Virus record (IMG/VR): IMGVR_UViG_2851955134_000003
Location: 1 to 41,806 of that record
DNA: 41,806 nt
Direction: 5' to 3' (one strand)
Source of the DNA: a virus
Taxonomy: Duplodnaviria; Heunggongvirae; Uroviricota; Caudoviricetes
Position numbers and translations under genes: made by a program. Positions 9,999 through 10,358 of this stretch are shown here, one piece after another; position 1 is the stretch's first letter, and every line of letters starts with the position of its first letter. Below the pieces are notes generated by a model. That model did not search any database, had not been told where the DNA came from, and saw nothing but the letters and a program-made list of their open reading frames with translations.

Positions 9999-10070
9999 GT
10001 CGTTAATTCCTATACGTAGTTTTACGATACTGAAGCCCTGACGGTCTGGCCACCGTTGGGCTTCGCTGTT

Positions 10071-10238
10071 TTATGCCACGCTATTCTTCTCACCAGTGAG
10101 TCCATACACTTTCCTCAGCTGATAGATAATCTCTGTATTGAACTTTCGGCATTCTTTTTCGCCATTTCTTTCAATAGCTAACTTCACATCGTCCGGAAAA
10201 CGAACTCGTCGTTGACACATCTCTTTTGCTTTTTGCAT
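10071..10238 (-). CDS. Arc-like ribbon-helix-helix repressor
   Basis: 55 aa from ATG 10238 (RBS AGGAG 7 nt upstream); RVRFPDDVKLAIERNGEKECRKFNTEIIYQL resembles P22 Arc (NLRWPREVLDLVRKVAEENGRSVNSEIYQRV); directly upstream of ant. Confidence 0.7.
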   Translation of the reverse strand: MQKAKEMCQRRVRFPDDVKLAIERNGEKECRKFNTEIIYQLRKVYGLTGEKNSVA

Positions 10239-10253
10239 TTCATATCTCCTTAG

Positions 10254-10266
10254 CCCCACCGTGGGG
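10254..10266. promoter_or_regulatory. Candidate Mnt/Arc operator CCCCAC-C-GTGGGG in the divergent arc-mnt intergenic region
   Basis: 13-bp palindrome with core CCAC(C/G)GTGG, similar to the core of the P22 Mnt operator as I recall it; lies between divergent RHH genes. Confidence 0.45.
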
Positions 10267-10358
10267 CAAAACAATTGTCACACCGTGCGTCATTGATGTC
10301 AAGCACACGGTGAGGCATACTTCAATCATTGCAAGTAACTCAATATTTGGTGAAGAAC

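Follow-up and report, generated by a model that had tools for sequence, protein, structure and literature searches.

Two small genes for RHH proteins are divergently oriented next to an ant-type antirepressor gene in an E. coli prophage, and the question raised by this locus is whether it is a true relative of the immI region of phage P22 or only resembles it in layout. We analyzed the locus within the window, the whole 41,806-nucleotide stretch of DNA, and compared it with P22 and with related loci in IMG/VR. The preliminary description had read the locus as an immI-like switch, and this reading was borne out by the homology of all three proteins plus the antisense RNA sar, beyond a similar shape. 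Judged from its sequence, the region is most probably (about 85%) a complete and apparently intact homologue of P22 immI, carried as a moron in an epsilon15/phiV10-like prophage of E. coli.

The proposed layout, a mnt-like gene divergent from an arc-like gene that is followed by ant, was confirmed from the ORFs and from protein homology (Table 1). The ant product matched the Pfam domain P22_AR_N (E 3.6e-44) and PHROG 524/245 'anti-repressor Ant' (E 9e-77). Over 217 aa it shared 40% identity with P22 Ant, and the N-termini of the two proteins read MTSIA and MNSIA, respectively. The gene lies downstream of the arc-like gene on the same strand, as an immI module requires. As a separate observation, the ant start in one RefSeq genome looks mis-set.

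The Arc-like protein was 33% identical to P22 Arc in BLASTP (E 4e-5), with a length of 55 aa against 53 aa, and matched PHROG 228 'Arc-like repressor' (E 3.4e-5). Its family profile aligned with the RHH domain of the Mnt-like protein (hhalign, E 8.6e-6) and with PDB chains of Arc (cf. 1ARR; E 0.03-0.08). No Pfam model, the Arc model PF03869 included, matched the protein at E <= 0.1. The AF2 model was rejected as unusable, with a pLDDT of 56 and just two helices at the expected RHH positions. Residues Q9, R13, F14, and P15 were invariant across about 140 loci. The predicted product of the 55-aa gene upstream of ant is a divergent Arc-type RHH protein.

The Mnt-like protein was recognized by the Pfam Arc domain (E 1.1e-14), and its best solved relative was the Mnt repressor (PDB 1MNT, E 3.5e-7). 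All 83 residues of P22 Mnt (1-83) were aligned, with 32% identity. The best-matching family was phrog_1388 ('unknown function'; full length, E 5e-72) rather than phrog_795, the family of Mnt itself, and the 143-aa form has 260 homologues across Enterobacterales. In the AF2 model (pLDDT 79), helices at residues 14-26, 31-44, and 55-86 are followed by an alpha/beta domain at residues 91-140. Its long helix (55-86) can be aligned to residues 52-83 of Mnt, the tetramerization region there. Structure comparison of the alpha/beta domain gave no convincing relative. The head of the protein, MSREDPQLRIRLP...NNRSMNAEIV, was essentially invariant across loci and carried at least four types of tail (143-151, 124, 117, and 86 aa). 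PADLOC gave no defense-system match for the Mnt-like protein and its neighbors, with a TIR-like match being non-significant, and the two flanking ORFs had no match in Pfam. A toxin-antitoxin or partition role for the two RHH genes was also considered and rejected, since neither a toxin gene nor a ParA gene lies next to them and arc is followed by ant.

Table 1. Positions of the genes, operators, promoters, and RNA elements of the immI-like region in the window
Feature	Position	Strand	Basis and remarks
ant, antirepressor, 314 aa	9054..9998	-	Pfam P22_AR_N, PHROG, BLASTP against P22 Ant
Psar-like promoter, TTGATA-17-TATACT, TG before -10	9964..9992	+	promoter scan, 10/12; inside ant codons 3-12
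sar-like antisense RNA (predicted)	9999..10072	+	Rfam RF00262; ends placed from promoter and T-tract
sar terminator hairpin, GAAGCCC...GGGCTTC	10032..10064	+	inverted repeat; 13 bp, -19.1 kcal/mol
arc-like, 55-aa RHH repressor, beta-strand QRRVR	10071..10238	-	BLASTP, PHROG 228, hhalign
S1, GCCCCAC-C-GTGGGGC	10253..10267		perfect palindrome; counterpart of the P22 mnt operator by sequence and position
Pant-like promoter, TTGACA-17-GACAAT, TG	10274..10302	-	promoter scan, 10/12; predicted to drive arc-like and ant
S2, GTCACAC-C-GTGCGTC	10277..10291		pattern match, 0 mismatches; in Pant spacer, overlaps extended -10
Candidate Pmnt, TTGATG-17-CATACT	10294..10322	+	putative; by eye, 8/12, below scan threshold
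S3, AGCACAC-G-GTGAGGC	10302..10316		pattern match, 1 mismatch; abuts Pant -35, inside candidate Pmnt spacer
mnt-like, 143 aa: RHH, long helix, extra C-terminal alpha/beta domain	10359..10790	+	Pfam, PDB, PHROG, AF2

The divergent region between the two RHH genes is 120 bp long (10239-10358), and the palindrome CCCCAC-C-GTGGGG that had been reported there was found at 10254-10266. It is the inner 13 bp of a perfect 15-bp palindrome, GCCCCACCGTGGGGC, which we call S1. A 7-bp inverted repeat had also been described. Its two arms are present (CACCGTG at 10281-10287 and CACGGTG at 10306-10312), but they are really the cores of two further copies of the 15-bp operator, S2 and S3. The three sites follow one 15-bp pattern, GNCNCAC-N-GTGNGNC (GNCNCAC-S-GTGNGNC in the window), with their centers 24 and 25 bp apart. 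Counted over all 41.8 kb of the window, the core CACSGTG shows no enrichment (4 copies found, 4.19 expected), but three of the four are clustered within 56 bp. By our own arithmetic from these window-wide counts, a stretch of 120 bp would be expected to contain about 0.012 copies, giving a Poisson probability of about 3e-7 for three or more. With the degenerate consensus GNCNCACSGTGNGNC and up to one mismatch, S1-S3 were the sole matches in 41.8 kb (0.38 expected), and three matches were reached in 1 of 100 shuffles.

The positions of S1 and S2 relative to Pant were similar to those of the P22 operators. Read in the arc sense, the order is S3, TTGACA, a 17-nt spacer with S2, GACAAT, 6 nt, S1, AAGGAG, and the arc ATG. 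S1 and the P22 operator Omnt (GGTCCACGGTGGACC) have the 9-bp core CCACGGTGG in common. The center of S1 is 14 nt past the Pant -10 box and 22 nt before the arc ATG, compared with 15 and 25 nt in P22. S2 occupies the position of P22 Oarc, with a sequence (GACGCACGGTGTGAC) that is invariant in nearly all relatives. The Pant spacer that holds this sequence contains no P22-type Arc operator (21 bp with TAGA half-sites), and a search of the divergent region for conserved repeats left none to serve as a separate Arc operator. The promoter scan, which recovered both annotated P22 promoters (Pant and Pmnt), called no Pmnt in the window or in the related locus L043. The candidate Pmnt holds S3 in its spacer and overlaps Pant, on the opposite strand, at the -35 box only. 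A conserved CATAAT flanks S3 in the relatives.

To follow these elements across phages, we searched IMG/VR with both repressors. The Arc-like query gave 62 loci and the Mnt-like query 80, with 25 and 50 unique intergenic variants. The positions of S1-S3 were conserved in the approximately 140 related loci. DNA identity fell to 69-80% in the arc coding sequence and to about 50% in the mnt leader, and the block of S3, -35, S2, and -10, including the Pant promoter, was almost invariant in both sets of variants. S1 remained recognizable, at a distance of 24-26 bp from S2 in the relatives. The site at the S3 position of the relatives reads GCCCCAC-N-GTGGGGT. The central base of S1 and S3 can be C, G, T, or A in the relatives, which fits, as expected, a dyad position that would not be contacted by protein. 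Some relatives carry rearranged sites: at the S1 position, L118 carries an S2-type palindrome (GTCACAC-C-GTGTGAC), the operator site of L133 is a hybrid, and L108 has a fusion of S3 and S1 with Pant and S2 deleted. These variants argue that the recognized element is the shared consensus and not two private types of site. An assignment by half-site type, with the S1/S3 type (GCCCCAC) for the Mnt-like and the S2 type (GACGCAC/GTCACAC) for the Arc-like protein, was dropped since L118 and L133 contradict it.

Based on the P22 immI mechanism (PMC11016777; PMC2629481), we propose the following model. In a lysogen, the Mnt-like repressor, expressed from a weak promoter, would occupy S1 just downstream of the Pant start, so that the arc-like/ant operon would be off and no antirepressor would be made. 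On infection without Mnt, Pant would fire to give the Arc-like protein and Ant. The Arc-like protein would then close Pant via S2, and probably Pmnt via S3, limiting Ant to a burst. The sar RNA would pair with the ant ribosome-binding site and block ant translation. The data show the homology of the genes, the match of the sar covariance model, the signals for promoters and a terminator, and the three conserved copies of the operator; we infer which repressor binds which site, where Pmnt lies, and that sar is expressed. The site-to-protein assignment follows position, and it may be wrong because S2 belongs to the S1 family and the TAGA-type Oarc is absent.

The main rival to this model, to which we give a substantial minority chance, is a switch in which both RHH repressors read all of S1-S3 in different orders, like CI and Cro of lambda on OR1-3. 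The Arc-like protein would act as a small dimer and the Mnt-like protein as an oligomer carrying a C-terminal domain, whereas the P22 operators are private. The residues facing the DNA are consistent with it. In the aligned ribbons, P22 Arc has Q-F-N-L-R and P22 Mnt H-F-N-F-R, and the window has Q-R-R-V-R in the Arc-like protein (Q-R-K-V-R in relatives) and Q-L-R-I-R in the Mnt-like protein. Gln9, Asn11, and Arg13 of the Arc ribbon thus correspond to Gln9, Arg11, and Arg13. The Mnt contact residues His6, Asn8, and Arg10 are not kept as a set in the alignment, where the Mnt-like protein has Gln, Arg, and Arg. Gln, Arg (or Lys), and Arg in both repressors would fit the G-rich CAC/GTG half-sites, and shared sites are a possibility. 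The single consensus that fits all three sites, the swapping of half-site types between positions in L118 and L133, and a region with no other conserved repeat for a separate Arc operator point the same way. On the other hand, the P22 Arc and Mnt ribbons differ at just one of these three positions and reportedly bind unrelated operators, so similar ribbons are no proof that sites are shared. The two repressors are also unlike in their N-terminal arms, MQKAKEMC and MSREDP.

A second alternative is that the Mnt-like protein alone uses S1-S3, and that the Arc-like protein acts via an unrecognized site or protein contacts, or is a decaying remnant. The resemblance of the operator family to P22 Omnt and not to Oarc, and the weak matches of the Arc-like protein to Arc models, are in its favor. 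However, the Arc-like ORF is intact and is co-conserved with the operator sites in the approximately 140 loci at 62-100% identity, and S2 sits where P22 Arc acts. We regard this alternative as unlikely.

The next part of the module is the spacer between the arc-like gene and ant. The preliminary description had placed in this spacer, at the position of P22 sar, a hairpin of GAAGCCC and GGGCTTC. The spacer is 72 bp long (9999-10070) and the two arms lie at 10032-10038 and 10058-10064, as described. Its identity with sar was upheld by an Rfam match, by a promoter inside ant, and by a T-tract over the arc stop codon. The sar model RF00262 matched positions 10000-10067 of the plus strand over its full length (model 1-68 of 68; E 2.7e-7) with 45.2 bits, just 2 bits over the gathering score of 43. 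As controls for the covariance model, the annotated P22 sar scored 97.8 bits and CUS-3 sar 84.6 bits. Several relatives with homologous hairpins scored below the gathering threshold. The -10 box of the Psar-like promoter ends 7 nt from the base adjoining the ant ATG. This is the register of the annotated P22 Psar (Psar at 15097-15125, sar 5' end at 15090), and L043 has a promoter-like site at the equivalent position. The hairpin is followed by GCTGTTTTAT, and a scan called it terminator-like with the tail TCGCTGTTTT. The T-tract at 10067-10072 overlaps the arc stop codon as in the P22 annotation. The predicted RNA is antisense to both the arc-ant spacer and the ribosome-binding site of ant.

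The hairpin also shows signs of selection. Among 18 spacer variants from relatives, the lower stem GAAGCCC/GGGCTTC was invariant and the upper stems changed with compensation (ACGGU/ACCGU in the window, ACUGU/GCAGU in P22, and GUGU/GCAC or ACUAUC/GAGUAGU elsewhere). Folding of 12 variants gave a hairpin of 13-15 bp whose sar-strand form was more stable than the complementary one in 12 of 12, by up to 10 kcal/mol, because of G.U pairs. Conservation with compensation and the greater stability on the sar strand therefore indicate selection on a sar-sense RNA and not on the arc-ant mRNA. Taken as a sequence-based assignment, the arc-ant hairpin is the intrinsic terminator of the predicted sar antisense RNA. 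A third alternative is that the hairpin serves as a terminator or structure only, with no functional sar, and the marginal Rfam score could be read in this way. The promoter, the full-length model match, and the T-tract are all on the sar strand only, however, and the G.U pairs favor that strand, which makes this alternative improbable.

We also consider improbable a variant in which a core within the hairpin is a fourth repressor site. A core related to the operators, CCACCGTTGG, had been pointed out in the hairpin. It is present in the spacer, at 10050-10059, but it is uncoupled from the operators across relatives. The nearest relatives hold CCACCGTGGGGC in the hairpin, which matches S1 at 12 of 15 positions and favors a fourth site. 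The core of the window, however, agrees with the consensus at only 8 of its 11 specified positions and disrupts the CAC/GTG pattern, with GTT in place of GTG. Relatives that share the repressors and operators, such as the L043 and L004 types, mostly have a P22-like or other upper stem without the core, and an identical core is carried by a Klebsiella phage whose operators are unrelated (GGTATAAC-G-GTTATACC) and whose ribbon is Q,N,R. CCACCGTTGG is thus unlikely to be a fourth operator. The core is the 3' arm of one among several compensated upper stems, and its likeness to the operators is probably incidental.

It is highly improbable that S1 is not a DNA operator but an RNA hairpin that acts in the leader of the arc mRNA on stability or translation. 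In favor of this reading, transcription from Pant includes S1, which lies just before the arc Shine-Dalgarno sequence and could form 6 bp with a 3-nt loop. However, S2 and S3 have the same consensus and lie upstream of the Pant start, outside that RNA, and the variants GCCCCAC-A-GTGAGGC and GCCCCAT-A-GTGAGGC break the pairing asymmetrically. S1 also corresponds, by homology of both sequence and position, to P22 Omnt, which is bound by protein.

The immI reading is therefore the one we retain, and a bolder form of it can be put forward tentatively, as a speculation that we would on balance expect to fail. The locus may be an immI that has been rewired so that both RHH repressors work on one family of three operators around back-to-back promoters as a bistable switch like lambda OR. 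The Mnt-like head, the operators, and the Arc-like protein would then form a fixed cassette, with the C-terminal domain of Mnt (for oligomerization or sensing) swapped freely. If the operators are truly shared, the locus would offer a natural system for the co-evolution of RHH ribbons and operator arrays, and a compact parts set for building synthetic switches.

The distribution of the module shows that the immI circuit, antisense RNA included, is a mobile cassette whose range extends far outside the P22-like phages, to epsilon15-like podoviruses, lambdoid tail operons, and a Klebsiella phage. The module region of the window matches a prophage of E. coli KC-Dl-1 with 100% identity, and among 5,426 complete E. 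coli genomes 35 have the region at 97.8% identity or more. In the host element, an epsilon15/phiV10-like prophage of E. coli with 96-97% identity to TL-2011b, the structural genes are like those of phiV10 and TL-2011b (genus Uetakevirus). The same module lies inside lambdoid tail genes in L004 and beside Klebsiella phage baseplate genes in L005.

The closest sequenced phage is TL-2011b (NC_019445), whose gp40-gp42 are 96.5-99.3% identical to the region at the DNA level. In its annotation, gp42 is named 'anti-repressor Ant' and gp41 'Arc-like repressor', and neither sar nor the operators appear. The window has an intact mnt-like gene, whereas that of TL-2011b is frameshifted by a 1-nt insertion, because of which the RefSeq gp40 starts at an internal Met and is called hypothetical. 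The module is thus not always kept intact. The present analysis corrects the database annotation in these respects, for sar, for the operators, and for the 'hypothetical' Mnt-like gene. The arrangement of sites, three related palindromes 24-25 bp apart between and over two divergent promoters, invites an analogy, and no more than that, with lambda OR. Lambda OR differs in that its proteins are HTH and not RHH proteins; one of the sites here is downstream of a promoter, and shared binding is hypothetical.

The 'ant moron' of P22-like phages is a variable and independently expressed insert, often composed of mnt, arc, and ant (Villafane et al., 2008; PMC2629481). It sits near the tailspike and ejection-protein genes, in a region of high genetic flux (PMC2629481). 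Here, the moron is found in a Uetakevirus-like genome, and the host phage is epsilon15/phiV10-like and not P22-like. The region shares with P22 immI the gene order and orientation, the three proteins (40% identity for Ant, 32% for Mnt, and 33% for Arc), a sar promoter inside ant with a sar terminator at the stop codon of arc, a perfect palindrome of odd length with the core CCACGGTGG between the Pant -10 box and the arc Shine-Dalgarno sequence, and one operator within the Pant spacer. P22 has one Omnt and one unrelated Oarc, whereas three related 15-bp palindromes are found here and the TAGA-type Arc operator is absent. The P22 promoters overlap almost fully; those of the window appear to be back-to-back with overlapping -35 boxes and with starts that would be about 60 bp apart. 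The ribbon residues are Q,R,R in both repressors here, compared with Q,N,R in P22 Arc and H,N,R in P22 Mnt. The Mnt-like protein has 143 aa against about 83 aa for Mnt, with about 57 extra C-terminal residues predicted to form the alpha/beta domain. Its cis-architecture, ribbon residues, extended Mnt-like protein, and type of host phage would thus mark the locus as a variant. It is of a known kind, P22 immI or the 'ant moron' (PMC2629481), with genes partly so annotated in TL-2011b and in RefSeq, and as it stands it is an ordinary homologue that was correctly recognized.

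The ant/arc/mnt cassette occupies various surroundings in different genomes. In E. coli CFSAN018748 (locus L004), the lambdoid tail genes L and K (C40 peptidase) flank it; in Klebsiella phage ST899-OXA48phi17.1 (L005), it adjoins baseplate J genes. These insertion sites argue that the cassette is a mobile moron which is not bound to podoviruses as its sole carriers. In the near search, the match of phage CUS-3 (L002) to the window ends at about 10064, and the distant search places this end near 10045; what looks like a recombination boundary falls at the sar/ant 5' end. CUS-3 has been described as lacking arc (epsilon34 paper). 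Upstream of sar and ant, the "bsq2 boundary sequence" of this phage contains an unannotated RHH-like ORF, and a small Cys-rich ORF (MSKECCFCG...) apparently follows the RHH-like one, as read by eye.

The Mnt-like RHH head (MSREDPQLRIRLP...) is essentially identical in L004, in the related loci L035/L041 and L058, and in the window gene (10359-10790), while at least four unrelated C-terminal tails are attached to it (143-151, 124, 117, and 86 aa). Since the Arc-like partner and the operators are unchanged across the loci with differing tails, the pattern looks like domain swapping at an oligomerisation or sensor end. Natural decay products of the module were also observed. Operator S3 has recombined with S1 in L108, deleting Pant and S2; the arc-like gene is lost in L142, and the mnt-like gene is cut to 20 aa in L036.

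In TL-2011b (L007/L083), codons 8-9 of the mnt-like gene contain a 1-nt insertion (window about 10385; GATCCCTTAG against GATCCTTAG), and for this reason the RefSeq gp40 begins at an internal Met and is named hypothetical. The insertion is either a sequencing error or a real inactivating mutation. For ant of E. coli KC-Dl-1 (L006), RefSeq (PGAP) passes over the ATG at 9998 and sets the start 36 nt further downstream (window 9962-9998), giving 300 aa. The annotated start is probably wrong, because with the upstream ATG the N-terminus is homologous to that of P22 Ant, and sar then covers the ribosome-binding site.

Features of the CUS-3 region and of the module's flanks
Feature	Location	Strand	Remarks
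RHH-like ORF, 46 aa	CUS-3, about 3368-3508	-	MKVKTLRMPEKLEKILEEKAKEECRSFSAEVIKRVLDSLKREGVMV; unannotated
ORF, 190-203 aa	window 10833-11444	+	low GC (32-35%); N-terminal hydrophobic helix; phrog_8033 "unknown"
ORF, 288 aa from GTG start	window 7860-8726	+	low GC; hydrophobic N-terminal segments
GC-rich hairpin	window about 8715-8779		GCCCGCAGCGCGGGC; flanking A-run and T-run

The hairpin looks like a bidirectional terminator; it is downstream of the 288-aa ORF, facing the ant 3' end, and in Rfam it gave no more than weak hits below the threshold. The 288-aa ORF, annotated as 210 aa in KC-Dl-1, had no match in Pfam or PADLOC. The cargo of TL-2011b differs in this region and includes a YafO-family toxin gene. 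On the other flank, the 190-203-aa ORF lies between mnt and a large virion-protein gene, and its sole match besides the PHROG family was TIR-like and non-significant (E 0.005). In P22, the equivalent position is occupied by sieA.
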